In this document: positions 6,359 to 62,702 of the stretch, in pieces
Layout: the number at the start of each line of letters is the position of its first letter
Position numbering within the stretch: position 1 is the first letter of the stretch
IMG/VR virus record: IMGVR_UViG_3300045988_184219
DNA: 64,000 bases
DNA from: a virus
Strand: one strand, 5' to 3'
Notes under the pieces: model-generated
Databases searched by the model: none
Told to the model about the DNA's origin: nothing
Seen by the model: the letters and a program-made list of their open reading frames with translations, nothing else
Program-made: the position numbers and the translations under genes

Positions 6359-6435
6359 CATTTACTATTATACCTGTTTTGAAAATGTGTGCTGGGAGTT
6401 TTGCGCAACGGACGAGATTTTTTTGATAAACCAAA

Positions 6436-7155
6436 GGAAAAAAGAAAACGCCCCGCGACAAGCACGGGACGCTTTTTTGTCCTACTCCTCGGATGCAACT
6501 CACGCAGCACCCTTCCTGTTTCACCGACTACTTACGCGGGTTGTCCGCGACCTTCATCTCCACAGGCGCAACTTCCCCCACAGCAGGACGTACGGGGTAC
6601 AAACGGCACTCGCTCCACCTCTAGCCACAGGATGCGAGTTATTATCGGCTTCTCGGGGCTCACGCGGCGGGGTCACAGGACACCCTCACCCACCAGTTTC
6701 GCTCGCCACACCATCCGCTAATTTATTCCACCGTGGTTAGCCGTCATGAGGTCTTTGCGACGTAATATTTTCTATGTATCATCGTAGTTTATGGAGATTG
6801 CGCTCCAAATTAGTCCGTCACATCGGACGTTTGCCCGCCATCATAATTGCTTCTCCTCTCTAGGTCTTTGAAAACTTTGTTCAAAGTAGGGCTGTTTCCC
6901 GCATATCCGAATTATCGCGGAGCCATTATATCACCCGCCGCACCCCTCCATCGGAGTGCGTCTAGCACGCGGGGATTTTAACATTGTTTAGGCGGCACAG
7001 GGGATGCAGGGGTCGATTCCTGCGTCCTTGTGAGGGATTTGCTATCAGGAGGCTTATCGTTCCTCGCGTGTGCGCCGCAACATCCGCAGCGCGGGGCGAG
7101 TGTCGTGTCCTCTCTGTTCGATCCGCCCACCAACTTCTCGTCGGTGTCCCTCTCG
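6436..7155 (-). ncRNA. candidate large (~720 nt) structured ncRNA, copy 1
   Basis: No credible ORF, high GC, own promoter box TTTATTATAGCAGG at 7161-7174, intrinsic terminator (cguccc gugcuugucgc ggggcg + U-tract) at 6440-6480; ~85% identical paralog at 36500..37232. Confidence 0.5.
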
Positions 7156-7374
7156 ATGGTTTTATTATAGCAGGTTCGAACGAGGATGTGGAGAGTTTTT
7201 GTTAAACCAAAGATTTTCTTTTTGAAAAACTTTGCGGGCGGGGCGTTTGATGCGTGGGAGATGTGGAACGCGACGAAAGATTTTTACTTTTGGTTTATCG
7301 AATCCAACTGAACTGACAAAATCAACTCAGATTTCCGACTCTCCCGATTCGAATTTCTGACAAAAACGACTACT

Positions 7375-7402
7375 TGACAAGCAACTATTCCGACTACATA
7401 AT
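7375..7402 (+). promoter_or_regulatory. consensus sigma-70 promoter on + strand (TTGACA-16-CATAAT)
   Basis: TTGACA 7375-7380, CATAAT 7397-7402; related copies at 58868 and 37366. Confidence 0.55.
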
Positions 7403-7674
7403 CCACGCTATTTAAGATGCACCATTCCTTTGGTCTACCAATACAGACGCAACCAAAAACAAACATAAGTTCTAATAAACAAAAACAAAAAAACAACACA
7501 CCTGCAAAAGCAAGTGTGCCGTTTTTCTTCTCACCCAACAAGCCGCCCATCGCTCAGACACTCTGGGTTACGTCCCGCAAGGTATGTTACTACCATGCCG
7601 TCTGCAAAACACCCATTGTAAAAATCTTCTGCGCTTTGATGGATTTTCGCAAACAAGTCGAACATTTTGGTCTG

Positions 7675-7706
7675 GTTTCAATCCGCGCACCCGCGTAAGG
7701 TGCGAT
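7675..7706 (-). repeat. solitary CRISPR-like repeat unit (type I-C-like): minus strand ATCGCACCTTACGCGGGTGCGCGGATTGAAAC
   Basis: Close to the I-C repeat consensus GTCGCGCCCCGCACGGGCGCGTGGATTGAAAC, with hairpin plus GGATTGAAAC handle; no adjacent spacer or cas. Confidence 0.55.
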
Positions 7707-8044
7707 GGCAACACATAGCCAGATTCGCCAGTCCCAAGCACTCACCCATCCACTCAGTGTACAAAATCGACATTATTTTGAGAATCCGTTTCCACTTACG
7801 CATCCTTGCGTCCGTCCTCTCCGAGAGAAATGGTGCCGATTTTATGATCACTTGAGGTTCGCACTCGGACCGTTTACTTTGGCATATCTCACCGTCATTT
7901 GTGTTGCGGTTGTAAATTTTCGGTCGCCCCGCCCAACGACCTTCTTTTAGTCTATCGCGTCACCCAACCAAGCGACGGATTCGACCTTGCTAGACAATCA
8001 ATCGCCTCACCGCACCTTTCCTTTGGTCTATCAACAAAACATCA
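7707..8044 (-). other. conserved ~330-nt leader-like element abutting the CRISPR-like repeat (copy 1 of 3)
   Basis: Begins GGCAACACATAG; long near-identical blocks shared with 22093..22433 and 62271..62602. Confidence 0.5.
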
Positions 8045-8097
8045 ATTAAAAAAAAGTGTAGCACATTTTAAAAATATTTTTCTCCAAAAAACGAAAA

Positions 8098-8312
8098 CGC
8101 CTCGCCATATCTGACAGGGCATTTTCAAGGTGAAGGTGATCCAAAGATGGCTTCAGATGGTTACAGAAAAAGCGAGAAAGGTTCGCAAATGCCGAAGCAT
8201 GTCTGGAAGGGACGCTCTGGATGTTTGTCCGTTCTACTCATATTATACAACAAATCAAACATCTTCGAGACCACCTACGACGAACACACTAAAACGCCGC
8301 TGTCCCTTTAAC
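8098..8312 (-). ncRNA. candidate ncRNA cassette E1 (GGATGGTTACAGA...TTCGAGACCACCTACGAC family)
   Basis: ORF-free; promoter-box variant CAATTAAATTTTATCAC at 8313-8335; hairpin CGCCATATCTGACAGGGC at the 3' end; paralogs E3-E5. Confidence 0.4.
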
Positions 8313-8361
8313 AATTAAATTTTATCACAAAAAACAAATTTTGCAACAGCCATCATCTAAA

Positions 8362-8915
8362 ACGAAAACACCCCGCCATTGCTGACGGGGAGTCTTCGCT
8401 ATATGGAGATAGTCCTTCGGATGGTTACGGTGGGTTAAGTAGAGTCATGCACCCCACGACTAAAGCCGGGGTTTGTCCCAGCCGACACGCTTCCGAGCGA
8501 TGCGAGGTTCAGACGGTTGAGAGGGAAAGACCCTCCCGACCTCCCTTCGGTGGGCGGAACATAAGTGGCATGACAGCGCCCCGTGCAACGCAGGTCATGC
8601 CTACGTTGCCACATTTTTCAACGAGTGCCTTTGCGCTAAATTCTGCGCCTACAACGGTTCTCTCGTTGCTTAAATTGTACCGTTTTTCAAGGAGATTTTC
8701 AACAACTTTTAAGAAAACATCCTCGAAAAGTAAAGTTTGACCGCGCCGATTCCTCCACATGCCTGAAGGAAGGGGCTTCCTCGGCGATTGAGGTGAGTTT
8801 GGTAAGTCATCTTCTTCAAGGAGTGTGCCACTATGACGAAATGGGCAAAACCGACCGAGAAGGACGCTCTGTGTACAAGACACAAGAGACCACCCGCGAC
8901 TCAATGGAAAGCCAC
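8362..8915 (-). ncRNA. candidate ncRNA cassette E2 (contains the 77-nt block shared with 46456..46532)
   Basis: GC-rich; terminator CCCCGCCATTGCTGACGGGG + T-tract at 8365-8395; the overlapping ORF 8509..8943 has no SD. Confidence 0.35.
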
Positions 8916-8997
8916 TGTCCCTCTTATACTTTGAGTATAACATAAACGATTATATTTTTCAACATATTTTTCCTCTTGAACAATTAACAAAAGAAAA

Positions 8998-9192
8998 AGA
9001 AACCACCCTAGCCAAATAGACTAAGGTGGTTTTCGAAGGAGAAAACATTTTTTGGATGGTTGCAGAGCGGAAAGTAACGGTCTGGAAGAGATGCTCTTGA
9101 TGTTTTTTTGATGCAATCATGATCTTTGTTTTTTAACATCTTCGAGACCACCAACGACGTATATGGTTAGCAAAACGCCGTTATCTCTTTAA
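8998..9192 (-). ncRNA. candidate ncRNA cassette E3
   Basis: GGATGGTTGCAGAGCGG ... CTTCGAGACCACCAACGAC; promoter-box variant at 9193-9215; hairpin AAACCACC..GGTGGTTTT at 9000-9035. Confidence 0.4.
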
Positions 9193-9237
9193 CAATTAAA
9201 TTTTATCACAAAAAAGGTTGTTTTACAATACATCAAT

Positions 9238-9470
9238 TAACCAAAACAAAAGCGCCCCACCATTTCTGGCAGGACGCGGACGGAGTAGTCCTTTCGGGAT
9301 GGTTGCAGAGAGGGTTATCAATCCGACAAAAGAAGACCTGTCTGGAGGGAACGCTCTGAGCACCTGCTAGGCACAACACGCAGTCACGCCATGATGCTTT
9401 CGAGACCACCCACGACGAATTATGTCAGTCGCCGCTGTTCCCATGACATATAAAGTATATCAAAAACCAC
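9238..9470 (-). ncRNA. candidate ncRNA cassette E4
   Basis: CGCCCCACCATTTCTGGCAGG ... GGATGGTTGCAGAGAGG ... TTTCGAGACCACCCACGAC; ORF-free. Confidence 0.4.
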
Positions 9471-9598
9471 TTTTGTTTTCAACAATTTCTTGTTCTCGCA
9501 AAAAAACAAAATTATCTCTCACAAAAATCTAAAATCACCTTTCCATCCTTGTCAAGATGCCAAATTTTTCCATAGATAAAATTCAAATAGTTCTCCTC

Positions 9599-10189
9599 TT
9601 AATGCGCTTTTTCCCACGTATGTGTCATACGAACGACACACCTGTGGAAAATATCTGCCAGAAGCTTAAGTAACATCTGTTCAAACTCTTTGTAAAATAA
9701 AAGGTCTACAACAGGAACACATTCCTTTGGTATATCCCAATCAATAGCATCCTTAACATCAGAAAAACCTGTGCTCACAGAAGCAGAAAATTCTATACAA
9801 TGACAAGATGGAGCGTATTTGGAAACAAGCTCTACATCGTCATAAACCATATTAAACAATTTTTTAACTTGTCGATCATTTTTTGATTTAAAAGAAGCCT
9901 TAATAAACATTTGTTCATCATCATCATAACGATATTCTACAGAAATTTTACGGCAAAGAGACTCCCCGAACATATCCGCAAGATACCTTTGTGCCGCTCC
10001 AAATGTTTCTCCCCAACAGTGTCTCTTCCACTCTTTTGTACACCTAAAATCACGCAAAATACGTTCTTTATCGATGTCTGGGAGTTGCTTGAATCTACGA
10101 ATCGGTTCCTCTAGTGGAAACTCTTCGGGGAGTTGAAATTGAGGTGTGTATGGGTGTTTGTGTGTTTGGGATGTGTTTTGTGTTGACAT
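9599..10189 (-). CDS. hypothetical protein (196 aa)
   Basis: Long ORF; promoter with TATAAT at 10275-10295; SD GAAAGGA. Confidence 0.55.
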   Translation of the reverse strand: MSTQNTSQTHKHPYTPQFQLPEEFPLEEPIRRFKQLPDIDKERILRDFRCTKEWKRHCWGETFGAAQRYLADMFGESLCRKISVEYRYDDDEQMFIKASFKSKNDRQVKKLFNMVYDDVELVSKYAPSCHCIEFSASVSTGFSDVKDAIDWDIPKECVPVVDLLFYKEFEQMLLKLLADIFHRCVVRMTHTWEKAH

Positions 10190-18850: not shown

Positions 18851-18968
18851 GGTTGTAATTCCTTTCTTTTATAGTTTTTTTTAATTATAACACAGTGTTG
18901 GAAACGAGTCGATAATTTGACCAAAAGAAAAACGACTCAGGTTTGTGTGTCGCCTTTTAATTGAACTA

Positions 18969-19004
18969 CCCACGACTGAAGTCACGGGAGTGCGCGGGGA
19001 TTTT
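18969..19004. repeat. GC-rich 35-nt element CCACGACTGAAGTCACGGGAGTGCGCGGGGATTTT (copy 1)
   Basis: Near-identical copy at 24726..24760 in the TnpB 5' leader; GCGCGGGGATTTT core also in the large ncRNAs (6965, 37065, 46430). Confidence 0.5.
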
Positions 19005-19086
19005 ATTCAACGCAAGGTGAGCAAGGCGTTTTCCATTACAACATAAAACGAAGTTCAAGTTAAGAACTTCGTTCCTAAAAATAATG

Positions 19087-21719: not shown

Positions 21720-22076
21720 TTACTTGCGATGGGAATGAGAGATTACCTCATCCAACATAATTACAAGCCAGTCAGGTTTGTTCGTCAGCCTATTGGTCAA
21801 GTGTTCAAGAGAGGCCACTTGTTGCGGGGAGGAAAGTGTGTGATGTTTAACAATCAGAGTTAGCCCACGAACGAGAGCTGTGAGACGTTCGTGGGGAGGC
21901 TTATGCGATTGGACGTTATTGATAAGTGTATCAATTTGCTCGTTGACAAGTTTTTGTTGTTCAACCTGCCAAGTCGCAACCTCTCGTTGAGCGTCAGCAA
22001 GATGACGGCTTTTGGATATGTTTGGGGTTTTCAAAGAGAACACCTTCTTTTTGGCGATGGGTTTCAATCCGCGCAC
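21720..22076 (-). CDS. doubtful ORF (118 aa, no ATG start, no SD), runs into the CRISPR-like repeat
   Basis: Only a GTG start inside the repeat; no cassette. Confidence 0.2.
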   Translation of the reverse strand: MRGLKPIAKKKVFSLKTPNISKSRHLADAQREVATWQVEQQKLVNEQIDTLINNVQSHKPPHERLTALVRGLTLIVKHHTLSSPQQVASLEHLTNRLTNKPDWLVIMLDEVISHSHRK

Positions 22077-22092
22077 CTACAATAGGTACGAT
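22061..22092 (-). repeat. solitary CRISPR-like repeat unit (type I-C-like): minus strand ATCGTACCTATTGTAGGTGCGCGGATTGAAAC
   Basis: Same GCGGATTGAAAC handle and a compensated hairpin as at 7675 and 62075-62270. Confidence 0.5.
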
Positions 22093-22433
22093 GGCAACAC
22101 ATAGAAAGATTCGCCCGTTCCGAGTGCCTTCCACTCCACACAGATCACAAAATCGACGTATTTTAGGGAATCTATTCCCACTATCGCATCCTTGCGACCC
22201 TTCTCGATGAGAGGAAACGAGTCGATTTTATGTTCACTTGAGGTTCACACTCAGACGTTTTCTTTGGCATATCCAACGATTATTTGTGTCGCGGTTGTAA
22301 ATTTTCGGTCGTCCGCGCAAAACGACCTTCTTTTGACCAAATTCACGTCACCCAACCAAACGCCGGGTTCGACCTTACCACACAATCAATCCTCTCACCA
22401 CACCTTTCCTTTAGGCTATCAACAAGACTTCAT
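22093..22433 (-). other. conserved ~330-nt leader-like element (copy 2 of 3)
   Basis: GGCAACACATAG ... CGCATCCTTGCGACC ... GCGGTTGTAAATTTTCGGTCG ... shared with 7707..8044 and 62271..62602. Confidence 0.5.
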
Positions 22434-22529
22434 TTACAGAAAGTGTAACACATATTAAAAATTATTGTTCTGCAAAAAGAAAAACACCTGTCAAGCAAGT
22501 GTTTTTCAAGGAAGAGATTTGAGAAAGAA

Positions 22530-22994
22530 TTAAGCCTTTGCAATCAAGCTGAAAAATTCCCCCCAAACCTCATCCTGTGTCAATGCTGCAACCCAACCAA
22601 AGTCGAGCGCACCACCTCCATAGAGGAGATGCCCCTTAAGATCGTAACCGAAACGGTACGACCGCCGTCCCCTTACGTTACGACCAAGGAGAGAGAAAAT
22701 GAACTCTCCGATGTTATCATCATCGACATCACGACGATACGAAACACTAAGAGACGAGTCTTCACCACTGGAAAGAACAAGCGTCCAGTGATGTTCTGTG
22801 TCACTCATCGCCACAAGCAACACACGACTCAAAAGTTCACGCGGCAGGAGAGGATTCCCCTCATCATCAGCAGCGAGCTCGAAATCAATGCTCGCATCCC
22901 ACTTCTTGAAGTGAGCCGACGAAAATTCAACAGCATCAAGCAACATTTCCACAATGTGCTTGTGTGTCTCCTCAAAAAGATTAGCCGTTTTCAT
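22530..22994 (-). CDS. hypothetical protein (154 aa; start at MKTANLF with SD)
   Basis: SD AAGAAAGGGTGG before ATG 22994; terminator hairpin 22460-22490. Confidence 0.55.
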   Translation of the reverse strand: MKTANLFEETHKHIVEMLLDAVEFSSAHFKKWDASIDFELAADDEGNPLLPRELLSRVLLVAMSDTEHHWTLVLSSGEDSSLSVSYRRDVDDDNIGEFIFSLLGRNVRGRRSYRFGYDLKGHLLYGGGALDFGWVAALTQDEVWGEFFSLIAKA

Positions 22995-23099
22995 AAAACC
23001 ACCCTTTCTTAAAAACACGTTGAATACGTGTTTTATAAAAAACCAACAATACCTTAACAACTTAATTATAATTTCTTTCTATTAAAAAGACAAAAGAAA

Positions 23100-23520
23100 A
23101 CCCACTCATTATTATAAAGGTGAGCTATCTTTCCGTTTCATTAATCAAGCTGTTTTATATCAACCAACCATCCTTTTCGTCTTTCCAAGTTCATCATACT
23201 GCTCCACCCAATTCTTCAAATGAGCATCCGCAACAGAGAGAGACACGGACGGATAGCGACGAATACAGTTGCCATTCTTATAATATCGCACTTGAACTCC
23301 CCACGACTCTCATCGCGGGATTCTCGGGTCGTTCGCAACTTAGACACCTTCTCACCGCAAATGAGACGTTGATCCAGTGCCCAGAGGTCGCGAAAAATTA
23401 CCGAGCTATCCCCGTCGTCCCAACGGTTCGGTAAGGCGAAAAGTTCGTTGATAAGCCAAAGGATTAGGCGGATTTGTCGCGAAACTTTTCATCGAGTTCT
23501 ACGAGGAGCCGAAGCCCTTC
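23100..23520 (-). ncRNA. candidate TnpB guide RNA (omega/reRNA) region: 3' end of tnpB plus downstream right end
   Basis: ~400 nt ORF-poor segment downstream of tnpB where IS605-family elements encode their guide RNA; not verified structurally. Confidence 0.3.
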
Positions 23521-24621
23521 GCAGAGAATATTCTGTGCCGCGTTGAGGTCGCGGTCGTGATGATGCCCACACTTCGGGCAGATCCACTCACGCACGCTGA
23601 GTTCCTTGACGGCGGGGTTTTTGAAGCCGCAATTTCCGCAGGTCTGCGAGGAGGCGTAGAACCTGTCCACAGTGAGGAGAACGCGTCCGCGCCAGAGAGA
23701 CTTGTATTCGAGCTGTCGTCTAAGTTCACCCCACGAGGAATCCGCGATGTGACGGGCGAGACAGTGATTCTTTATCATCCCGCTCACGTTGAGGTCTTCA
23801 ATGAAGATAACCCCGTACTTTTTTGTGACAAAGTTCGTTAATTTATGAAGGTAGTCCTCTCGTTGTGCCGCAATTTTTGCGTTCAGCCGTGCCACCTTGA
23901 CCCGAGCCTTCTCGCGACGCGCACTCGACTTTGATTTTCGGTCGAACGAGCGTTGCAGAAATTTCAGGCGATTTAAGGAGGTATTGAGCGGCTTGAGCGC
24001 GTCAAACTGCGTGCCATCGGAGAGGATTGCGAGGTCTTTGATGCCAAGGTCGATGCCGACAGGATCTTCATTGTGCTCCAACACAGGCGCAGGAACGTCG
24101 GTTGCGCAGATCGAAATGTAGTACCGCCCGTCTGGTTCGATACGCACGGTCGCACTGAGGATTCTGCCCTCTGGAATGAGGTTCTTCCCTCCGCGAATCC
24201 GCACCCTGCCGAGCTTCGGAAGCTTGATATGCGTCCCCTCAAACGCGATGTTGTTATTCGTGAAATTCGTCCGATAACTCTGATAGTTGTCGCGTTTGGA
24301 CTTGAAGCGTGGATAACCAAACTTCCTCTTGCGCGACGAGTTGACCGTTCCAAAGAAATTATCATAGGCTTTATCGAGATCGCGAAGGGCGTTCTGTAAC
24401 GCACATTTATCGGGTTCGAGGAGGAACGGGAGTTCACGTTTGAGGTCGGTCAGCCGTTTGCTACACGCGTTGTAACCGAGCGTTTTCTTCGTTTCCGCGT
24501 ATGTGTCGATTCGGAGTCGAAGAAAATAATTGTAAATAAATCGTTTACACCCGAACGTCTTTTTAATCAAGTCACGTTGCTTTGCGTTCGGGTAGGCACG
24601 GTACACGTACCCCTTTTCCAT
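23464..24621 (-). CDS. tnpB: IS200/IS605-family TnpB (RNA-guided RuvC nuclease, OrfB)
   Basis: RuvC-I GIDLGIKD, RuvC-II IFIEDLN, zinc finger CGNCG...CPKCG, RuvC-III RDLNAAQNI; 385 aa; no tnpA. Confidence 0.85.
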   Translation of the reverse strand: MEKGYVYRAYPNAKQRDLIKKTFGCKRFIYNYFLRLRIDTYAETKKTLGYNACSKRLTDLKRELPFLLEPDKCALQNALRDLDKAYDNFFGTVNSSRKRKFGYPRFKSKRDNYQSYRTNFTNNNIAFEGTHIKLPKLGRVRIRGGKNLIPEGRILSATVRIEPDGRYYISICATDVPAPVLEHNEDPVGIDLGIKDLAILSDGTQFDALKPLNTSLNRLKFLQRSFDRKSKSSARREKARVKVARLNAKIAAQREDYLHKLTNFVTKKYGVIFIEDLNVSGMIKNHCLARHIADSSWGELRRQLEYKSLWRGRVLLTVDRFYASSQTCGNCGFKNPAVKELSVREWICPKCGHHHDRDLNAAQNILCEGLRLLVELDEKFRDKSA

Positions 24622-24725
24622 TTGGTCAATCCACCTCCTTTTATCTCAAAACTTCATTGTTATTATAACATTTTCTCTATCGAAAATCTACCGATTTTCG
24701 AAGACTTTCCTTTTTACCCGCTATC

Positions 24726-24760
24726 CAACGACTGAGGTCACGGGTGTGCGCGGGGGATTT
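24726..24760. repeat. GC-rich 35-nt element (copy 2) in the tnpB 5' leader
   Basis: CAACGACTGAGGTCACGGGTGTGCGCGGGGGATTT, near-identical to 18969..19004. Confidence 0.5.
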
Positions 24761-24810
24761 AATCAAAGGTATACAGCTTACTTGTGTGTTTATTATATAG
24801 CTTTTTAAGT

Positions 24811-24896
24811 GAGCCAAAGAGAAAATCGGAGGTAACGGTAGTTTTCCTTTCTGTCGTCACACTCCGACTACTCGACACCTTTTCTTTGGTCTACTC
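24811..24896 (-). terminator. cassette terminator with both inverted arms (GAGCCAAAGAGAAAA ... hairpin ... TTTTCTTTGGTCTAC)
   Basis: Representative of the inverted CCAAAGG/CCTTTGG arms flanking a GC hairpin. Confidence 0.5.
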
Positions 24897-25328
24897 AACC
24901 ACACCAAAACAAGCAAGGAAGTCGTATTTTAATTTATTGCAAACTGTTTTGATAGGGAGGAGAATTCTTTTTGTTTTCTTCCCATTCTCATAACCTTCAA
25001 CCTCACACCACTTACTCGTAGTTGGACGAATAAGAATAGAGTTAGTGCGGTTATTCGTCACTTTACGAAGTGAAACAAAAACGGAATCATCGCTTGCAAA
25101 ACGCTCAATCATTAGTTTGTCACCAGAACAAAAGAGTTCGATGGTGCTCTCTAAGTCCCATTTAGAAATGGAACTTAAAAGAATCTCTCGCGACTCCTCA
25201 TCCACATAGCCGCCACAAAACGATTTTTCGAGAACCAACTCACAATTCAAGTAAATTGTTGCTTGGTTAAACGAAACGTTTTTGCACCAGTCATAGATAA
25301 TTTGTTGAATCTTATCCAACAGAATCAC
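24891..25328 (-). CDS. paralog family F protein (145 aa)
   Basis: ILLDKIQQIIYDW ... WDLESTIELFCSGDKLMIERF shared with next two genes. Confidence 0.55.
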   Translation of the reverse strand: MILLDKIQQIIYDWCKNVSFNQATIYLNCELVLEKSFCGGYVDEESREILLSSISKWDLESTIELFCSGDKLMIERFASDDSVFVSLRKVTNNRTNSILIRPTTSKWCEVEGYENGKKTKRILLPIKTVCNKLKYDFLACFGVVE

Positions 25329-25385
25329 ACCTTCCTCAAATCACAAAAACTACAAAAAATCACAAAAACTACAAACTTGCATCCA

Positions 25386-25826
25386 TTACGTTCCAAAATT
25401 CGACAAGACACAATTTTCAAGTTCTGCACAAGCAACTCGTATATTTGACAATAAGAGGTCAATAGTCGCACCGTTGGAAAGGTGTCTAACGATACAATCA
25501 TGAGATCTTCTACGAACCATAATACCAGTGCTATGTTCACACATAGACTTTTCAAGGATAAGAATGAAAGAATTATCATAAACCAATCTTTCTATCATGA
25601 TTTTGTCGCCAGCTCGAAAAAGCTCAACAATCCAATCAACATCTTCGCGAGCAACAACACTTAAAATATAATTTCTCGACACATCATCAATATCATTATT
25701 TAAGAATTCCTGTTCAAAAACAGTTTTATAATTAAGCTGAACTATTGCGCGATCAACGGGGGAATCCGCAACAAAATCATAGATTGCTTTTTGAATTTTG
25801 TTCAAAATAAAACCTCCAAATCTCAA
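25386..25826 (-). CDS. paralog family F protein (~140 aa; true start probably the TTG after SD GGAGG)
   Basis: ILNKIQKAIYDF ... VDWIVELFRAGDKIMIERL. Confidence 0.55.
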   Translation of the reverse strand: MRFGGFILNKIQKAIYDFVADSPVDRAIVQLNYKTVFEQEFLNNDIDDVSRNYILSVVAREDVDWIVELFRAGDKIMIERLVYDNSFILILEKSMCEHSTGIMVRRRSHDCIVRHLSNGATIDLLLSNIRVACAELENCVLSNFGT

Positions 25827-26257
25827 AACTCAGCATATAAAAGACGTTTGATAGTTGCCATTGCCGACCGAATCGCACAAAACCGCTCCTCTATCAAGTC
25901 CGCGCCCTCATAACGCTCCAACCTGCACCCATTCTTTAGGTACTCAACAAAATAGGAATCGTTACGCTTGTTTTGCTCATCCCGCACAACCGAAACAAGA
26001 TAACCCTTTCCATCGCTATCGGTTTCTGCATAGTATTTGGCAACGAGCATCTTTCCACTGCCAATAGCTTCAACCCACCAATCCTTATCACAGCTTGCAA
26101 TCATGTCAAGCACTTTGTTTTGAGCCACAATATTGGGACGAAGGTCAAGACAGCGCATATCTTCGGCAACAACAAGTTTTCCGTTTTTGCGAGCCGTGAT
26201 AAACCCAAAGTCGATGTTGCGGAGAGCGTAGTAGATTGTCGATTGAATTATATCCAT
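25823..26257 (-). CDS. paralog family F protein (144 aa; start at MDIIQSTIYY)
   Basis: SD AAGAAAGAGAG before ATG 26257; DWWVEAIGSGKMLVAKY. Confidence 0.55.
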   Translation of the reverse strand: MDIIQSTIYYALRNIDFGFITARKNGKLVVAEDMRCLDLRPNIVAQNKVLDMIASCDKDWWVEAIGSGKMLVAKYYAETDSDGKGYLVSVVRDEQNKRNDSYFVEYLKNGCRLERYEGADLIEERFCAIRSAMATIKRLLYAEF

Positions 26258-36399: not shown

Positions 36400-36480
36400 T
36401 AATTGGATTAACTCAATTAACAGAGTCTTGTTAATTGAGTTAATCGAGTCAACAAGGTCAACAAGGTCAACAAGGTCAAC
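36400..36480. repeat. AT-rich 17-bp-arm palindrome (GATTAACTCAATTAACA..TGTTAATTGAGTTAATC) followed by GTCAACAAG x4
   Basis: Occupies the position normally taken by the GC hairpin terminator; related TTAATTGAG tandem at 4040-4095. Confidence 0.5.
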
Positions 36481-36499
36481 AATCTTCCCCTTTGGGCTA

Positions 36500-37232
36500 T
36501 AAAAAATGAAAACGCCCTGCGACAAGCACAGGACGTTCTCTCGAACACTTTCCACACAATAAGTCACGGGATCATCCCCCTCGGGATTCAACGGCAACTC
36601 ATTGTACTGCAACCACCGATGTTCACACGGCTGGTATCATCATCCTCGCGCCCCACAACGAGGAAACCACAAGATTTTGGGGCAATATTTGACGGCACTC
36701 GCACCACCTCTAGCCACGCGTGATTTGCAGTTACGAGCGACTTGTCGGGACGTATCTTCGCGGCGGGGTCAACGGGTGTTATGCCCTCTCCCACCATCCA
36801 GTCCACCATCCACTCCTCTTGTGCGTGGTTAGCCGTCATGAGGTCTTTGCGACGTAATGTATGTTATCAGCCGTAGTTTAGGGAGATTGCACTCCGAATC
36901 AGTCTATCACATCGGACGTTTACCCGCCATCATGGTTGCTTCTCCTCTCTAGGTCTTTCAAGCTCTTTTTTCAAAGTAGGGCTGTTTCCCGCTTATCCGA
37001 ATTCTCGCGAAGCCCTTATATCACCCGCCGCACCCCACCATCGGAGTACGTCTAGCACGCGGGGATTTTAACATTGTTTAGGCGGTCGAGGTTGCTCGCG
37101 GAGGTCGATTTCCACGTCCTCGGGAGAGACTCTCAACAGGTGTCTAGCGTTCCTCATGTGCGCCGCTTTAGCTGCGCGGAGTTGCGTCAACCTGCCTGAG
37201 CCGCCTACCAACTTTTCGTCGGTGTCCCTCTC
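36500..37232 (-). ncRNA. candidate large (~730 nt) structured ncRNA, copy 2
   Basis: Paralog of 6436..7155: shared blocks GGTTAGCCGTCATGAGGTCTTTGCGACGTAAT and GTCTAGCACGCGGGGATTTTAACATTGTTTAGGCGG; promoter box 37238-37250; terminator 36510-36545. Confidence 0.5.
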
Positions 37233-37365
37233 GATGGTTTTATTATAGCAGGTTCAAACGAGAATGTGGAGAATTTTTGTTGAGTCGAAGGTTTTTCTTT
37301 TTCGAGAGAGGTGGGAGGTGTCGGGAACCAGTTTCTTTGGCTTATCCTATCCGACTTAACCGACT

Positions 37366-43476: not shown

Positions 43477-44823
43477 TCACGCGGACTCCCGACGAGGCGA
43501 GTCTGTTGGACGAGCAGCCAAACCAGCACAGGCGATCCTTGTCGGCGCTACCATAATCGGGCGTAGCACAACGCCCTCTATCCCGTCGGCAAACGCGTTC
43601 GGGACTACTTTTTTCACGATCTGCAACGCTCCGTTTACGTCCGCATTCACGCGTGTTCCGTCGTTTGAACGGAATAATCCTCGATGAATACGACGCTTTT
43701 TGTTGTAAAATTCGCGTGTCGGGGGCTCTCCGTCCAGAAATGATGTACCGCTCGTATAGCTTTCTTCTGTTACGACAACAGCTATACCATGTTCATACGC
43801 TTTGTACTCGATCATTTCTATCAATCGGGCGAACGGGAGTCCTACAAAATGCTGGTTCTCCTTCGCCGTGAACGGGGTGCGCTCCTTCCAGTCGCGGTTT
43901 AGACCAATGATAAGTGTCGGAATATTCTGTGCGACGAGGCGATCTACGATGAGGCGCGAGGTCTTGTGCAGGTAATCCTTGAGTTTTGCGTTCCTTTTGT
44001 CAATCAGGCGTTGGATTCTCCGCGTCACTTTCCTCCCATTGAGGTGCTCCGACATCTCACGGAGAGACGCCAAACGCTTGTTGTAGAACTGGTTGATCGA
44101 CTTCGGGATGCGACCGTTTACGATGATCGGAGCGTCCCCCGTGGAGAACGCCATCGTAACGAAGTTGTTTACGCCGAGGTCAATTCCTGCGTATCTCCCG
44201 TTGGGCTTTCTCTGAGGAACTTCCTTGATTCTGTAAACGATTTCAAGGGTGATGAACCCTCCGTGCGGGACAAATCGAACCTGTTGAAACGACTTTATTT
44301 CACGAGGGCTGTTAGTGTCCTCGCGGATGAACTGCGGCTCAACCGTGAACCCCTTGAAAACTTTTGGAAACACGATTTTTCCATCCCGAATTTTACACTC
44401 TTGACTCGTTAAAGTTAGAACGTGCTTTCCATCCTTCTTTAGAAAATGAGGCGGTTTCGGACGACCCTTATACTTTTCAGGGTGCTTTTTCCAATCTTTA
44501 AGTTCTTCCCAAAAACTTTTCCAGTCTGTCACGAGCAAGCGTAAATTCTGCTGTGCGCTCTGTGCCGTCGGCATGTTCCGATAGTCGGGAAAGTCCGTTT
44601 TCGACTTCAGGATTTTGTCAAGTTGTTCATAACTCGACTGTTTCTCGTGCGCGAAAAACTGTTGCCGAAGTAGATAATTCCCTTGATTATAAAGGTTTTT
44701 TGACATGTGACAAAACTCCGCGAGCATTTCATACGCGGGGTGAGTCTCCTTGATGATGTGTTGCTCCACGCGAACAAAGGGATCTTTCTTTTTCTTCGTT
44801 TTTGGCTTTTCTTCCGTTTTCAC
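43477..44823 (-). CDS. TnpB-derived protein lacking zinc finger and RuvC-II Glu (possible nuclease-dead, TldR-like)
   Basis: RuvC-I GIDLGVNN present, DYLHK block aligns with the intact TnpB, RuvC-II position reads IIGLN (no Glu), YTSGTSFLDG replaces the CxxC zinc finger, NADVNGALQI retained; ~200 aa N-terminal extension; standard cassette promoter at 44878-44900; only 67 nt to the next gene. Confidence 0.6.
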   Translation of the reverse strand: MKTEEKPKTKKKKDPFVRVEQHIIKETHPAYEMLAEFCHMSKNLYNQGNYLLRQQFFAHEKQSSYEQLDKILKSKTDFPDYRNMPTAQSAQQNLRLLVTDWKSFWEELKDWKKHPEKYKGRPKPPHFLKKDGKHVLTLTSQECKIRDGKIVFPKVFKGFTVEPQFIREDTNSPREIKSFQQVRFVPHGGFITLEIVYRIKEVPQRKPNGRYAGIDLGVNNFVTMAFSTGDAPIIVNGRIPKSINQFYNKRLASLREMSEHLNGRKVTRRIQRLIDKRNAKLKDYLHKTSRLIVDRLVAQNIPTLIIGLNRDWKERTPFTAKENQHFVGLPFARLIEMIEYKAYEHGIAVVVTEESYTSGTSFLDGEPPTREFYNKKRRIHRGLFRSNDGTRVNADVNGALQIVKKVVPNAFADGIEGVVLRPIMVAPTRIACAGLAARPTDSPRRESA

Positions 44824-45209
44824 TGGGACGTTCCTCCTTTCCAGTGTTCTCTTTGGTCTATTTAAGACGCAATCTCGATGTATTTATTATATAACTTTTC
44901 GACAGACCAAAAGGAGAAATCGGCACGTATCGCAAGTTTTCTTTTTTAACAATACATGCCAACTTCGACCGATTCCTCCACACGCCTAAAGACGGGGGCT
45001 TTCTCGGCGTTTGTGGTGATGTTTTCGGTAGGGTAGCGCATAATCGGCATTATTCTTCCTCCTTGTAGAAGACAATGTTTTCGACAGGATGTCGTTTGAT
45101 GTGTTTATTATATAGCTTTATAGATGAAGATGTGCGGGTTTTATGTTTTTTGGAATAAGAAAAATAGACCAAGAGGATTAGTTACAACATTTCCTTTGGT
45201 CTATTTTTA

Positions 45210-46274: not shown

Positions 46275-46690
46275 AGCGCTTTCTTTACGCTGTTTTTGCT
46301 CGTTTTCCTTTGGCTTACAACGCCGATTTTGTAACTCCCAAGTCCATTATGGCAAGGGAGATAGCACCTCGCGCTTCCGAATTGTCGCGAGAGCCGATTA
46401 TTTCCACCCGCCCGCACCTTTCGGCACGATCTAGCGCGCGGGGGATTTACTTAGTCATGCACCCCACGACTAAAGCTAGGGGCTTGTCCCAGCCGACACG
46501 CTTCCGAGCGATGCGAGGTTCAGACGGTTGAGAAGGAGAACGGGGCTCAATTTGCGAGTTGGTTTAGAAAGGAGGCTTTTCCCCGCACACAGTAAAAGCG
46601 GGAATTCATGGAAACCGAGGCTGTGCCCCGCCGAGCCGACATGCCGACGGAAGCCACCCCTAGCTGACAGCCGCATTCTTCGCAGCTACT
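46275..46690 (-). ncRNA. candidate mosaic ncRNA cassette (shares 77-nt block with 8447-8523, GCGCGGGGGATTT module and CCUCCUUUCUAAACC tail)
   Basis: ORF-free GC-rich; promoter-box variant CACATTATAGCGCAAC ~46715; hairpin + T-tract terminator 46270-46305. Confidence 0.4.
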
Positions 46691-46849: not shown

Positions 46850-48121
46850 TTAAACAGGTAGCAATCTTCTTCCTCCATACGCTTTTAACTGTGGATAGAC
46901 AGGCTTAGACAAGAAACAATTTTTCAAACGCCACTCAGACTCGCCGTCTTTGAGTACCAAACGGGTTCGACCAGATAAAAACGTCTCAGAATTATATCCC
47001 TCTACAGAAGGGAGCCCCTCAATAAATAACTCAAAATCGGAACCTTTAAACTTCTTATCCCGAACCAAGGAACAAAACAAAAGTTCAGCCTCCACATAAT
47101 AGTGCGTAGAAAGAAGATCCTTATTACGTTCAAAAAACTCAGCAGAGAATGCACGCCACCCATCACAATTCCGCAAACGGTGAACCGTTGCTTGACTGCA
47201 TAAAGTTCCGTAACTCAACCCAAAATCTTTTGCAAAGACAGGGAGCTCCATTACGGGAATTTTACGACCATCCTCATGTATCAACACCCAACGGCAAGAA
47301 CGCTCTTTTTTCTTCTTTGTAATGCGTTTAACAAAGTGACAAGATTCAAGCCCCCACTCAGAGCCTTTTTCTTTCAAGGAAAGTTTAATCTTTTTACGGA
47401 AGAAGGAGTCATCATATCCTTCGATTTTACGAAAATCACGAATAAAAGCACCAACCTGCGACCATTCGGGAGAACGATTTTTCATCCTGCGCCATAAAGC
47501 GTAAACAGTAGAATAAAGGTATCGGCGCAAACGACCATTTTTCCAAGCCTTAAAGTCTTCTGGATATTCTTTATTTTGATAGATAGAATCATCAAGACCA
47601 ATTTCCCCAAAATCTTCGTAAAGCTCATAAAGCCTGTAAACGAAATCCATACCGACATTCAGTGGATTTTTCATTCGCGTATATATCAAGTTACTGTCAA
47701 TATAATCCATAACGATTGCAAGACGTTCTTCTTTTGTCGTTTCTATCGCATCTCTCGCCTGTTTGCGTGGAAAATCTTGAAAACTACTTCGCTTCATATA
47801 ACGAACCCATGCACGAAGGGTTTCTACACGAGAAATATGATGTTTTTTGCACACATCACTCAAACTCATGCCAGAAAGGACATCCTCTACCGCACACTTT
47901 TTCTCATCAAAAGAAAATCGGGCGCGTGAAGGATAGAGAAATTCCTCATCGCTCTCACACAACTCATAAATCTTAATCCAAGACTGAATTTGTTGATAAC
48001 GAATTCCATGTTCTTGAGCAAAAGAAGATAAAGATTGTTTTCTTTTCTTTGCTTCGAGGATAATTTTTAACTTGTACTCATTAGAAACGCGCATCCTCTT
48101 TTTTTGAACTTTATCAGACAT
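46850..48121 (-). CDS. HTH-domain protein with transposase-OrfA-like N-terminus and large unknown C-terminal region (423 aa)
   Basis: Two HTH-like segments (LSSFAQEHGIRYQQIQSWIK; LSDVCKKHHISRVETLRAWVR); SD AGAGGTG before ATG 48121. Confidence 0.5.
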   Translation of the reverse strand: MSDKVQKKRMRVSNEYKLKIILEAKKRKQSLSSFAQEHGIRYQQIQSWIKIYELCESDEEFLYPSRARFSFDEKKCAVEDVLSGMSLSDVCKKHHISRVETLRAWVRYMKRSSFQDFPRKQARDAIETTKEERLAIVMDYIDSNLIYTRMKNPLNVGMDFVYRLYELYEDFGEIGLDDSIYQNKEYPEDFKAWKNGRLRRYLYSTVYALWRRMKNRSPEWSQVGAFIRDFRKIEGYDDSFFRKKIKLSLKEKGSEWGLESCHFVKRITKKKKERSCRWVLIHEDGRKIPVMELPVFAKDFGLSYGTLCSQATVHRLRNCDGWRAFSAEFFERNKDLLSTHYYVEAELLFCSLVRDKKFKGSDFELFIEGLPSVEGYNSETFLSGRTRLVLKDGESEWRLKNCFLSKPVYPQLKAYGGRRLLPV

Positions 48122-48141
48122 AATCAATACACCTCTGAACC

Positions 48142-48402
48142 CTACCGCCGCCACCCACTGACGACAATAGCACCATCCTCCACATCCACAATATACCCAT
48201 GCGCCAAGAGCGTCTTTCGGATAGTCGGAATGTTTTTTGACGCAACACCGACTCGCACAGAGTCTTTGGGTGTACTTAGAATCAGACCCGCTATCTGGTT
48301 GAGGATTTTCTGCCGTTTGTCTTGTGTCTGCACCTGCTTAATATGCGGAAAATAGGGTTTCTGCGAGGTGTTGCTTTTGTTTGCTTTTCCAGATTCAGTC
48401 AT
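48142..48402 (-). CDS. hypothetical small protein (86 aa), upstream partner of 46850..48121
   Basis: SD AGGAAGGAAAAC before ATG; 20-nt gap to the downstream gene. Confidence 0.5.
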   Translation of the reverse strand: MTESGKANKSNTSQKPYFPHIKQVQTQDKRQKILNQIAGLILSTPKDSVRVGVASKNIPTIRKTLLAHGYIVDVEDGAIVVSGWRR

Positions 48403-52297: not shown

Positions 52298-52459
52298 TTG
52301 AAATCCTCCTGTTCTCAAAAACAACAAAACTCTTTTTCTATTATAAGTATTTTCTCTTTCTCCATCAACACAAACCAACAACCATCCACACACTTTCTCA
52401 AAAAAAAAGAAAAGACCATTAAAAGCAATAACTTCCTTTGGTCTATCAACAATTTCAAC

Positions 52460-57945: not shown

Positions 57946-58073
57946 GTTGATTTTCCTTTCTGATGTCATTAACTAACTTTGTGTATTTATTATATAACTT
58001 TATTATGTTTTGTGTGGAGTGTTTTCGATAGACCAAAGGAAAAGCGCACCCAATTTGAGTGCGCCATTTTTCC

Positions 58074-62074: not shown

Positions 62075-62270
62075 GTTTCAATCCGCGCACTCCATACAGA
62101 GTGCGATTTTGCGCTCAATGGCTTTATTGTCTCTCAGGTTTCAATCCGCGCACCCACGAAGGGTGCGATGGGCATAATTTCAACCCACACTACCTATACG
62201 GGTAGTGTTCTCTTTACACTGAGCACAATAGAATCGGGTTTCAATCCGCACGCCCTATACGGGGCGTGAT
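62075..62270 (-). CRISPR. mini CRISPR-like array, type I-C-like repeats: R1 62075-62107, spacer 62108-62137 (30 nt), R2 62138-62169, degenerate repeat ~62178-62207, spacer ~62208-62237, R3 62238-62270 (leader-proximal)
   Basis: Minus-strand repeats ATCGCACTCTGTATGGAGTGCGCGGATTGAAAC / ATCGCACCCTTCGTGGGTGCGCGGATTGAAAC / ATCACGCCCCGTATAGGGCGTGCGGATTGAAAC; constant GCGGATTGAAAC handle, hairpin stems kept by compensatory changes; no cas genes in the window. Confidence 0.55.
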
Positions 62271-62602
62271 GGCAACACATAGCAAAATTAACCAAATCCG
62301 CGCACTCACTACTCCACTCACCCATCAAAATCGACGTAATTTAGGAAATCCATTCCCGATCACGCATCCTTGCGTCGATCCTCTCCGAGAGAAACGTGTC
62401 GATTTTATGTTCGTTTAGGATTCGCACTAAAACTGTCCTTTGGCTAATCCAACCGTCATTTTTGTGTTGCGGTTGCAAGATTTCGGTCGCCACCGCCAAA
62501 CGACCTTCTTTTGGTCAAATTCACGTCGCCCAACCAAGCGACGGGTTCGACCTTGCTAGACAATCAACGGTCTCACCGAACCTTTCCCATTGGTCTATTA
62601 AC
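62271..62602 (-). other. conserved ~330-nt leader-like element (copy 3 of 3) adjacent to the mini-array
   Basis: GGCAACACATAG ... CGCATCCTTGCGTCGATCCTCTCCGAGAGAAA ... GCGGTTGCAAGATTTCGGTCGCC ... shared with copies at 7707 and 22093. Confidence 0.5.
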
Positions 62603-62702
62603 AAAACATCATTTACAGAGAGTGTAGCACAGATTCAAAAGAGTTTCCTGCAAAAAAGAAAAACCAACACATGATTTTTAAAATATGTGTTGGTTCTCGA
62701 CA

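Follow-up and report, generated by a model that had tools for sequence, protein, structure and literature searches.

An intact tnpB-only IS200/IS605-type element of ISDra2-like design, with a predicted guide RNA scaffold, in an array of small genes

Introduction

For the insertion sequence (IS) ISDra2 of Deinococcus radiodurans, TTGAT has been described as target and target-adjacent motif (TAM), together with a right-end RNA of ~150 nt that carries a flank-derived guide of ~16 nt, and D191 in its TnpB protein (PMC8612924; structures PDB 8bf8, 8exa and 8h1j). In ISDra2, tnpA overlaps tnpB, and the guide RNA scaffold lies largely inside the 3' end of tnpB. IS608 of Helicobacter pylori has subterminal imperfect palindromes and no terminal inverted repeats (PMC3201880). 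Within the same family, elements of the IS1341 type carry a single orfB between family ends and depend on TnpA in trans. Palindrome-associated transposable elements (PATEs) are roughly 100-400 bp long and have both hairpins. Here we describe a tnpB-only element in IMG/VR virus record IMGVR_UViG_3300045988_184219, the whole 64-kb stretch of which was analysed and is called the window below.

The element spans 23292-24761 on the minus strand (1470 bp) and is very probably an IS200/IS605 family insertion sequence in the non-autonomous, tnpB-only 'IS1341-type' arrangement, with an ISDra2-like design. Its TnpB is 47% identical to that of ISDra2 and has the same catalytic residues and zinc finger, TTGAT stands 5' of the left end (LE) in both elements (PMC8612924), and the predicted guide RNA scaffold, which is similar in size, also extends to the right end (RE), with the guide coming from the flank. 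Unlike ISDra2, it has no tnpA, its scaffold core lies downstream of the tnpB stop codon, and TTGAA, CTGAA and TTGAC flanks are also seen for its copies. It shares with IS608 the arrangement of subterminal palindromes; the left cleavage point, outside the element, is 17 nt 5' of the foot of the (inner) LE hairpin, compared to 19 nt in IS608, the right one is 8 nt 3' of the RE hairpin foot, compared to 10 nt, and the terminal tetranucleotide TCAA, which is the IS608 right cleavage site, is found in both (PMC3201880). The two differ in their targets (TTAC for IS608, TTGAT/TTGAA here) and in the absence of tnpA here. A 45-nt remnant elsewhere in the window likewise has both termini and no open reading frame (ORF), as PATE-like derivatives do, but is far shorter than PATEs and has a single hybrid hairpin.

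Results

The TnpB protein is intact and no Y1 transposase is encoded in the window

23464-24621, minus strand: tnpB, 385 aa, predicted RNA-guided endonuclease of the ISDra2 type (Pfam matches and ISDra2 alignment)

A sequence-only reading of the window had described an intact tnpB-only IS605-like element whose TnpB has all catalytic motifs and which lacks tnpA, and our analysis bears this description out. The 385-aa protein matches the Pfam families HTH_OrfB_IS605, OrfB_IS605 and Cas12f1-like_TNB, and aligns with ISDra2 TnpB over residues 3-370 (368 residues, E=9e-99). The RuvC residues D191, E275 and D358 align with D191, E278 and D361 of ISDra2 TnpB, and all four zinc-finger cysteines (C328, C331, C348 and C351) are there, so that the protein combines the split RuvC D-E-D triad with the zinc finger, as OMEGA (obligate mobile element-guided activity) nucleases do. 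With the three TnpB domains, the catalytic residues and the cysteines all present, tnpB is intact. Searches returned 7932 homologues at E<=1e-20; the closest are 77-93% identical and are located on metagenome contigs, and the best identity among GTDB species representatives was 54%. A DNA search of a phage database with positions 22000-26000 gave no match.

A search of all stop-to-stop ORFs of at least 95 aa, on both strands of the window, turned up no Y1 transposase. Between LE and tnpB the gap is just 140 nt, and none of ~30 related loci fetched from metagenome contigs has a gene there. Because it lacks a Y1 TnpA, we filed the element as non-autonomous IS1341-type and not as autonomous IS605.

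The window also contains a second, unrelated TnpB-like ORF (43477-44823, minus strand, 448 aa) with matches to OrfB_IS605 and Cas12f1-like_TNB and no N-terminal HTH match. The next gene begins ~50 nt past its stop codon, and any guide RNA of this TnpB would thus need to overlap the ORF. Its flanks have nothing in common with the first element or with the noncoding RNA (ncRNA) modules described below.

Independent insertions define both ends of the element

24762-24766, minus strand: target/TAM pentanucleotide TTGAT, directly 5' of LE, in host DNA outside the IS
24622-24761, minus strand: LE, 140 nt, beginning with TAAATCCCCC... and ending directly before the tnpB ATG; contains the 35-mer discussed below
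24717-24754, minus strand: LE subterminal imperfect palindrome (DNA fold), outer stem CCCGC/GCGGG, inner hairpin CCCGTGAC-CTCA-GTCGTTGG
23300-23319, minus strand: RE subterminal hairpin CCCGCGAU-GAGA-GUCGUGGG (also CCCGCGAT-GAGA-GTCGTGGG; DNA and RNA folds)
23292-23299, minus strand: RE terminus GAGTTCAA, directly after the RE hairpin, ending in TCAA

The ~30 fetched loci encode the 77-93% identical TnpB relatives, and alignment of their flanks delimited the element through comparison of more than 12 independent insertions on other metagenome contigs. On the left, three unrelated contexts (the window, L003 and L099) are alignable from TTTGAT^TAAATCCCCC(G/A)CGCAC onwards (^ marks a junction) and have unrelated sequences upstream; as alignability begins there, we place the start of LE at 24761. 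Junctions of other copies read TTGAA^TAAAATCC, CTGAA^TAAAATCC and TTGAC^CACCCC, and TTGAT or TTGAA precedes LE in 8 contexts. On the right, the copies can be aligned for 172 nt past the stop codon and then diverge after ...GTCGTGGG(G/T)AGTTCA(A/G), which makes 23292 the last base; the right end of the window copy terminates at ...GTCGTGGGGAGTTCAA, and the guide position follows from 23291. In each locus, a single left-end motif and a single right-end motif are found, ~1.44 kb apart.

Characteristic features of the IS200/IS605 family were found: both ends have subterminal imperfect palindromes, terminal inverted repeats are lacking, and insertion is 3' of TTGAT or TTGAA without target duplication. 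The window flanks, ...CCTTTGAT and GTGCGATA..., accordingly read TTGAT / GTGCG and are not duplicated. We counted at least 12 different insertion sites on replicons with a GC content from 0.38 to 0.55, and copies of the same IS occur in unrelated contexts, for instance in phage-like neighbourhoods and in those with pilus and SSB (single-stranded DNA-binding protein) genes.

The GC-rich 35-nt element to which the sequence-only reading had drawn attention has a single exact occurrence, at 24726-24760 within LE, where it covers the subterminal palindrome, and is the left-end hairpin of the IS. The outer stem of the palindrome covaries in L099 (CCCAC/GTGGG). The LE and RE hairpins share the core G(T/C)GAC...GTCGTKGG, with the end-hairpin form G(T/C)GACYTYAGTCGTKGG. 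The RE hairpin may have a dual role, in DNA as the hairpin that TnpA recognises and in RNA as the last scaffold helix. The IS is seated within the leader of a small gene cassette, and its boundaries therefore differ from those of the cassette. Collectively, these data define a real, intact and now precisely delimited element, an ordinary tnpB-only member of the IS200/IS605 family of the ISDra2 type.

A conserved, structured noncoding region links tnpB to the right end

23292-23430, minus strand: predicted conserved omega/right-end RNA scaffold core, helices 5-8, wholly downstream of the stop codon (conservation and covariation)
23431-23501, minus strand: candidate 5' scaffold extension, helices 1-4, formed by the last 38 nt of tnpB and TCCTTTGGCTTATCAAC after the stop codon (alifold)
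23272-23291, minus strand: guide position, host sequence GTGCGATATTATAAGAATGG, directly 3' of RE

A guide (omega) RNA had been expected in the ~360-nt ORF-poor segment 3' of the tnpB stop codon. We found a conserved structured region in this segment, although only 23292-23463 (172 nt) belongs to the element; of the remainder, 23272-23291 is the guide position, and 23100-23271 comprises the rest of the interrupted host cassette and the promoter of the next one. Between copies, the 172 nt have 85-95% identity, compared to 57-74% at third codon positions, and this excess indicates purifying selection on noncoding sequence.

RNAalifold gave a consistent multi-helix fold for the 3' noncoding region. 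In an alignment of 17 close copies, 98% of the pairs were compatible with this fold, compared to 36-46% when the structure was slid along the alignment. With a covariance model built from the close copies, we also detected homologous RNAs beside distant tnpB genes, immediately at their 3' ends; these come from Clostridium sp. CAG:221, an Eubacteriales and a Bacillales metagenome-assembled genome and Methanococcoides. Once such distant relatives were added (23 sequences in all, with the caveat that the alignment is fitted to the model), covariation supported the fold: compensatory changes were seen in 26 of 49 pairs, a value reached by 0 of 500 shuffles, mostly in helices 5-8, and 96% of the cells pair, against at most 49% when slid. 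In helix 8, the RE hairpin, 5 of 8 pairs show compensatory changes. With the same caveat, a conserved structured noncoding scaffold runs from the tnpB 3' region to the right end, as is found in OMEGA systems. Helices 1-4 are only weakly indicated as part of the scaffold: they are mostly absent in distant homologues, helix 1 shows no covariation, and conservation at third codon positions rises only slightly, to 0.80, over the last 11 tnpB codons. The noncoding region with purifying selection and a covariation-supported fold thus measures about 140-210 nt, and the scaffold core together with a guide of 16-20 nt about 155-160 nt, which is near the ~150 nt of the ISDra2 right-end RNA (PMC8612924).

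Every copy diverges exactly after TTCAA, at the guide position, and the guide sequence differs at each site; that of the window copy (23272-23291) is unique in the window. By analogy with ISDra2 and IS608, the 3' region would be transcribed into an omega/right-end RNA. Rfam gave no gathering-score match in the window and only chance-level matches (E>=1.5) in 23150-24900, so the scaffold family is not in Rfam, and scans of IMG/VR for the scaffold core and for LE found nothing.

A second, divergent match to the scaffold model (43 bits) is located on L094 (8257-8420, minus strand) without an adjacent tnpB ORF. It adjoins an apparent CRISPR-type repeat array (8500-9700), seen as repeated peptide strings in ORF translations.

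The window holds occupied, empty and collapsed sites

36425-36447, minus strand: unoccupied target site of a sibling IS (L001/L002/L010/L092), reading TCGAT^TAACTCAATTAACAAGAC
18961-19005, minus strand: tnpB-less remnant, 45 nt, LE start (TAAAATCCCCGCGCACTCCCGTGAC) fused via the shared hairpin to the RE terminus (GTCGTGGGTAGTTCAA)

Besides the occupied site, the window contains an empty target site of a sibling IS and a collapsed copy. The left flank of the sibling insertion in L001 matches window positions 36723-36475 at 97%, and its right flank, which starts directly after ...TTCAA, matches 36442-36188 at 89%; the empty site reads TCGAT^TAAC... The L001-type guide has 1 mismatch in 18 to this site, beside TCGAT. 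A 9-nt tandem repeat (CCTTGTTGA, 3.9 copies at 36448-36482, minus strand), which contains repeated TTGAC, precedes the empty site.

The sibling copies L001, L002, L010 and L092 are without the first ~20 nt of LE (TAAATCCCCCGCGCAC...), the cleavage site and the adjacent flank (~130 nt upstream of tnpB), a loss that took part of the 9-nt tandem repeat. Their TnpB is intact (93% identical) and the scaffold is kept. These copies are probably no longer excisable. As they have lost the start of LE and keep an intact TnpB, we conclude that TnpB and scaffold can outlive mobility.

For the window insertion itself, L096 contains an uninterrupted joint, GCGCGTTGAT^GTGCGATATTACAAG (also ...GCGCGTTGAT^GTGCGATATTACAAGAATGG...), which corresponds to the TAM plus the window right flank. 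The match to the right flank is 93% over 214 nt, and TTGAT plus the guide sequence is matched with 1 mismatch in 20. The contigs that contain the neighbouring genes all either carry the IS or break inside it. Taken together, the ends of the element are set by more than 12 insertions, one sibling empty site and one uninterrupted joint, that is by the kind of comparison which the sequence-only reading had proposed.

The 45-nt remnant reads TTGAA^TAAAATCCCCGCGCACTCCCGTGACTTCAGTCGTGGGTAGTTCAA^TTAAAAGG (19010-18953, minus strand), with TTGAA at 19006-19010. It matches LE at 26 of 28 nt of the 35-mer core (E=7e-6) and at about 31 of 35 nt overall with one indel, whereas its last part matches the right-end terminus at 16 of 17 nt, and the two matches overlap in the hairpin. 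Judged by these alignments, 18961-19005 is a left-end/right-end chimera. The earlier claim that the 35-nt element is repeated at 18969-19004 was correct in that the second copy is IS-derived, but what is present there is the 26/28-nt core followed by the RE terminus and not a repeat of the 35-mer. The most economical origin would be a former full copy in which a deletion joined the two near-identical hairpins of LE and RE (GACTTCAGTCGTGGG). The remnant is kept at the same site in L081-L083; searches of the other loci and of IMG/VR found it nowhere else, and with this single site it has the look of a deletion scar and not of a mobile family.

Two promoter-like boxes have different owners

24662-24670, minus strand: TGTTATAAT, a promoter-like extended -10 box that the IS itself carries, 40 nt ahead of the ATG
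24792-24797, minus strand: TATAAT, the -10 box of the host cassette that the IS interrupts; outside the conserved IS, 30 nt upstream of it

Two promoter boxes had been noted in the tnpB leader and read as cassette promoters reused by the element. Both boxes exist, but they belong to different owners, and the idea of reuse is not supported. The proximal box TGTTATAAT lies inside the IS and is kept in all copies whatever their context, including unrelated ones, and is presumably the IS's own promoter. The distal TATAAT, located outside the IS, is one of the 38 copies (<=1 mismatch) of a GTTATATAATAAA family that is found across the window. A sigma-70 consensus scan detected neither -10 box because neither has a -35 element, and both promoter assignments accordingly draw on the -10 consensus and on conservation. 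Since the IS was inserted 30 nt downstream of TATAAT and points the same way, transcription from the host cassette could run on into tnpB and the scaffold, as a consequence of position and orientation and not of reuse.

Within the window, scaffold and hairpin pieces were detected only in the element and the remnant

It had further been suggested that a core of the 35-nt element appears inside large ncRNAs and that pieces of IS ends or guide scaffolds have been spread through ncRNA modules. The exact 12-mer GCGCGGGGATTT occurs only in the 18969 copy; the ncRNA modules carry the form ACGCGGGGATTT. A core of 13-14 nt, TAAA(A)TCCCC(C)GCG, is located at 6968-6980, 37058-37070 and 46436-46449 (E about 0.03-0.04 each), where it forms the 5' edge of a GC-rich module of ~100 nt (6905-6980, 36995-37070 and 46375-46449, minus strand). 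Similarity of the module to LE stops after these 13-14 nt, and 2 of the 3 copies belong to one repeat with 81-94% identity. As a link to the IS, the core is at most suggestive. The suggested spread was not supported: scanning the window with the scaffold covariance model, filters off, returned only the IS (257 bits) and the 18961 remnant (17 bits), all other matches having E>=0.18, and BLAST with both ends found no further scaffold or hairpin piece in the window besides the remnant.

The 13-nt motif CCTTTGGCTTATC directly after the tnpB stop codon (23450-23462, minus strand) is the commonest intergenic motif of the array. In the form CCTTTGG(Y)(Y)TATC it has 41 copies at <=1 mismatch on both strands, for example at 58027-58039 (minus), 52435-52447 (plus) and 45193-45205 (plus). 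It usually stands directly after a terminator-like hairpin and T-run, and often in inverted pairs 20-60 nt apart near cassette boundaries. It follows the tnpB stop codon in all copies of this IS lineage and not in distant relatives.

Discussion

Considering its likeness to ISDra2, the element may work as follows. The omega RNA would be made from the TGTTATAAT promoter, by processing of the tnpB mRNA or by read-through from the host cassette, and its 3' end would carry about 16-20 nt of host flank (GTGCGATATTATAAGA...). TnpB loaded with this RNA would cut copies of the locus that read TTGAT+GTGCGATATT..., i.e. the empty donor joint, and recombination with an occupied copy could then restore the IS, as in the homing model in which a TnpB cut is followed by recombinational restoration (bioRxiv 10.1101/2023.03.14.532601). 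Transposition proper would need a Y1 TnpA in trans; this enzyme would recognise both hairpins when the top strand is single-stranded, with cleavage after TTGAT and TTCAA.

Several observations weigh against the reading of this locus as an IS1341-type element with its own guide RNA. No cognate TnpA was found anywhere, which leaves present mobility unproven. The joint in L096 is half an empty site, as its left flank differs and only the TAM and the right flank are shared, and a search of JGI metagenomes with the exact junction pattern found no full empty site for the window insertion, which would read ...GTATACCTTTGAT^GTGCGATATTATAAG... Covariation among the 17 close copies is non-significant (3 compensatory pairs, reached by 87 of 500 shuffles), and the strong signal in the larger alignment comes from six distant sequences that were aligned to the model's own structure and are hence biased toward it. 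The DNA hairpin energies are non-significant at LE and marginal at RE (z -1.96). Finally, the RNA itself is a prediction, as are its 5' end and its promoter.

The absence of TnpA raises the question of whether the element is a stranded relic that has kept its structure but has stopped transposing because the host lineage has no matching TnpA, and that persists only by vertical inheritance of its carrier, perhaps aided by TnpB-guided homing. This would refine rather than replace the IS1341-type assignment, and we hold it as a tentative possibility. It would explain that no tnpA is present in the 64-kb window and no gene between LE and tnpB in the ~30 loci, that the insertion is present in every sample holding its neighbouring genes, and that L001-type copies lost the LE cleavage site yet keep an intact TnpB. 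On the other hand, at least 12 insertion sites at GC contents of 0.38-0.55, all beside TTGAW, point to repeated and fairly recent insertion of the TnpA type, and the window copy has both ends intact. A more far-reaching variant, which we think improbable, is that the IS lineage is kept and spread among mobile elements of the human mouth without any TnpA, through TnpB/omega cutting of TTGAW-flanked paralogous cassette leaders and recombinational copying; the 45-nt chimera would then be a minimal product or a still-mobilisable unit resembling repetitive extragenic palindromes (REP-like), and CCTTTGGYYTATC was perhaps captured as a signal for making the guide RNA.

Domestication of TnpB by the carrier, as a TldR-like RNA-guided repressor or as a weapon against competing elements, appears highly unlikely. 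The IS does lie in an array of small, mostly unknown genes with anti-defence-like functions among them (a C5 methylase, NADAR and an SNF2 helicase); it shares the orientation of the entire array and follows just downstream of a host promoter. Nevertheless, the catalytic triad is intact, unlike that of nuclease-dead TldR proteins (PMC10705468), both transposon ends and the TAM are preserved, the same element is found in unrelated contexts, and the guide is the adjacent flank, as in all other copies, and differs at each site. We give equally little credence to the proposal of the sequence-only reading, namely a cassette-like module that borrows array promoters and whose end and scaffold pieces have been spread into ncRNA modules. 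The three GC-rich modules that open with the 13-14-nt core, the 41-copy motif CCTTTGGCTTATC after the tnpB stop codon and CTTTAGTCGTGGGG, which resembles the RE hairpin and lies in a repeat at 46453-46537/8443-8526, could be taken in its favour. Yet the proximal promoter is part of the IS wherever copies occur, neither covariance model nor BLAST found a further scaffold copy, the ncRNA similarity ends after 13-14 nt with two of the three matches representing one repeat, and element and cassette boundaries differ. The two outcomes that the sequence-only reading had named as refuting its element, no conserved structure or transcript 3' of tnpB and boundaries coinciding only with those of ordinary cassettes, were not observed: a conserved structured region follows tnpB, and the boundaries are separate.

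The meaning of the locus beyond its annotation is small: it adds one ISDra2-type TnpB element with TAM, ends, scaffold and guide position defined. For practical use, it provides a compact, intact TTGAT-type TnpB with scaffold as a candidate for testing as an editor. Both the 35-mer and the proximal promoter are transposon parts and should be dropped from models of how the array works.

Carrier array and further repeats

Small genes on the minus strand, arranged in a long array, make up the window, and nearly each of them is preceded by a GTTATATAATAAA-type -10 box. Among 82 minus-strand ORFs, only 4 Pfam families were matched (NADAR, DUF4314, AAA_33 and a weak kinase match). The array also holds a C5 DNA methylase, an SNF2 helicase and an SPFH protein, and related contexts carry SSB and Tad-pilus genes. 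These genes suggest that the array is an island with anti-defence or accessory functions on a mobile element. The carrier is uncultured and comes from the human mouth, and identical neighbouring genes were found in human oral metagenome assemblies.

Several repeats and modules accompany the array genes. The GC-rich modules mentioned above are part of a ~300-nt module at 6860-7180 and 36950-37270 (minus strand), with a partial homologue at 46375-46475. It lies directly downstream of a cassette-type -10 box, has a terminator-like hairpin at its end and folds with -112.7 kcal/mol (z -3.8 compared to shuffles), so that it looks like a candidate promoter-driven structured ncRNA; Rfam has no family for the ncRNA region 6400-8600. 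We considered these ncRNA modules as possible scaffolds of the second TnpB (43477-44823) and rejected this, as the flanks of that TnpB show no similarity to them.

An 85-nt repeat at 46453-46537 and 8443-8526 (minus strand, 95% identical) contains CCCC(TA)GCTTTAGTCGTGGGG, which resembles both the RE hairpin and the palindrome of IS608. The repeat could mark one end of a further IS200/IS605-type element. An interpretation of 46436-46475 as an RE-LE junction of tandem elements was rejected, since the sister copy at 8443-8526 is not followed by an LE-like core. Just upstream of the repeat modules at 46375-46537, a 434-aa protein (46850-48154, minus strand) has N-terminal HTH_28 and HTH_Tnp_1 matches of the transposase type and a C-terminal part to which no domain is assigned. 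Finally, a ~380-nt repeat family (7674-8054, 22060-22442 and 62263-62620, plus strand), with copies that are 72-83% identical and end in CCTTTGGTCTATCAAC, has one member 1 kb from the IS.

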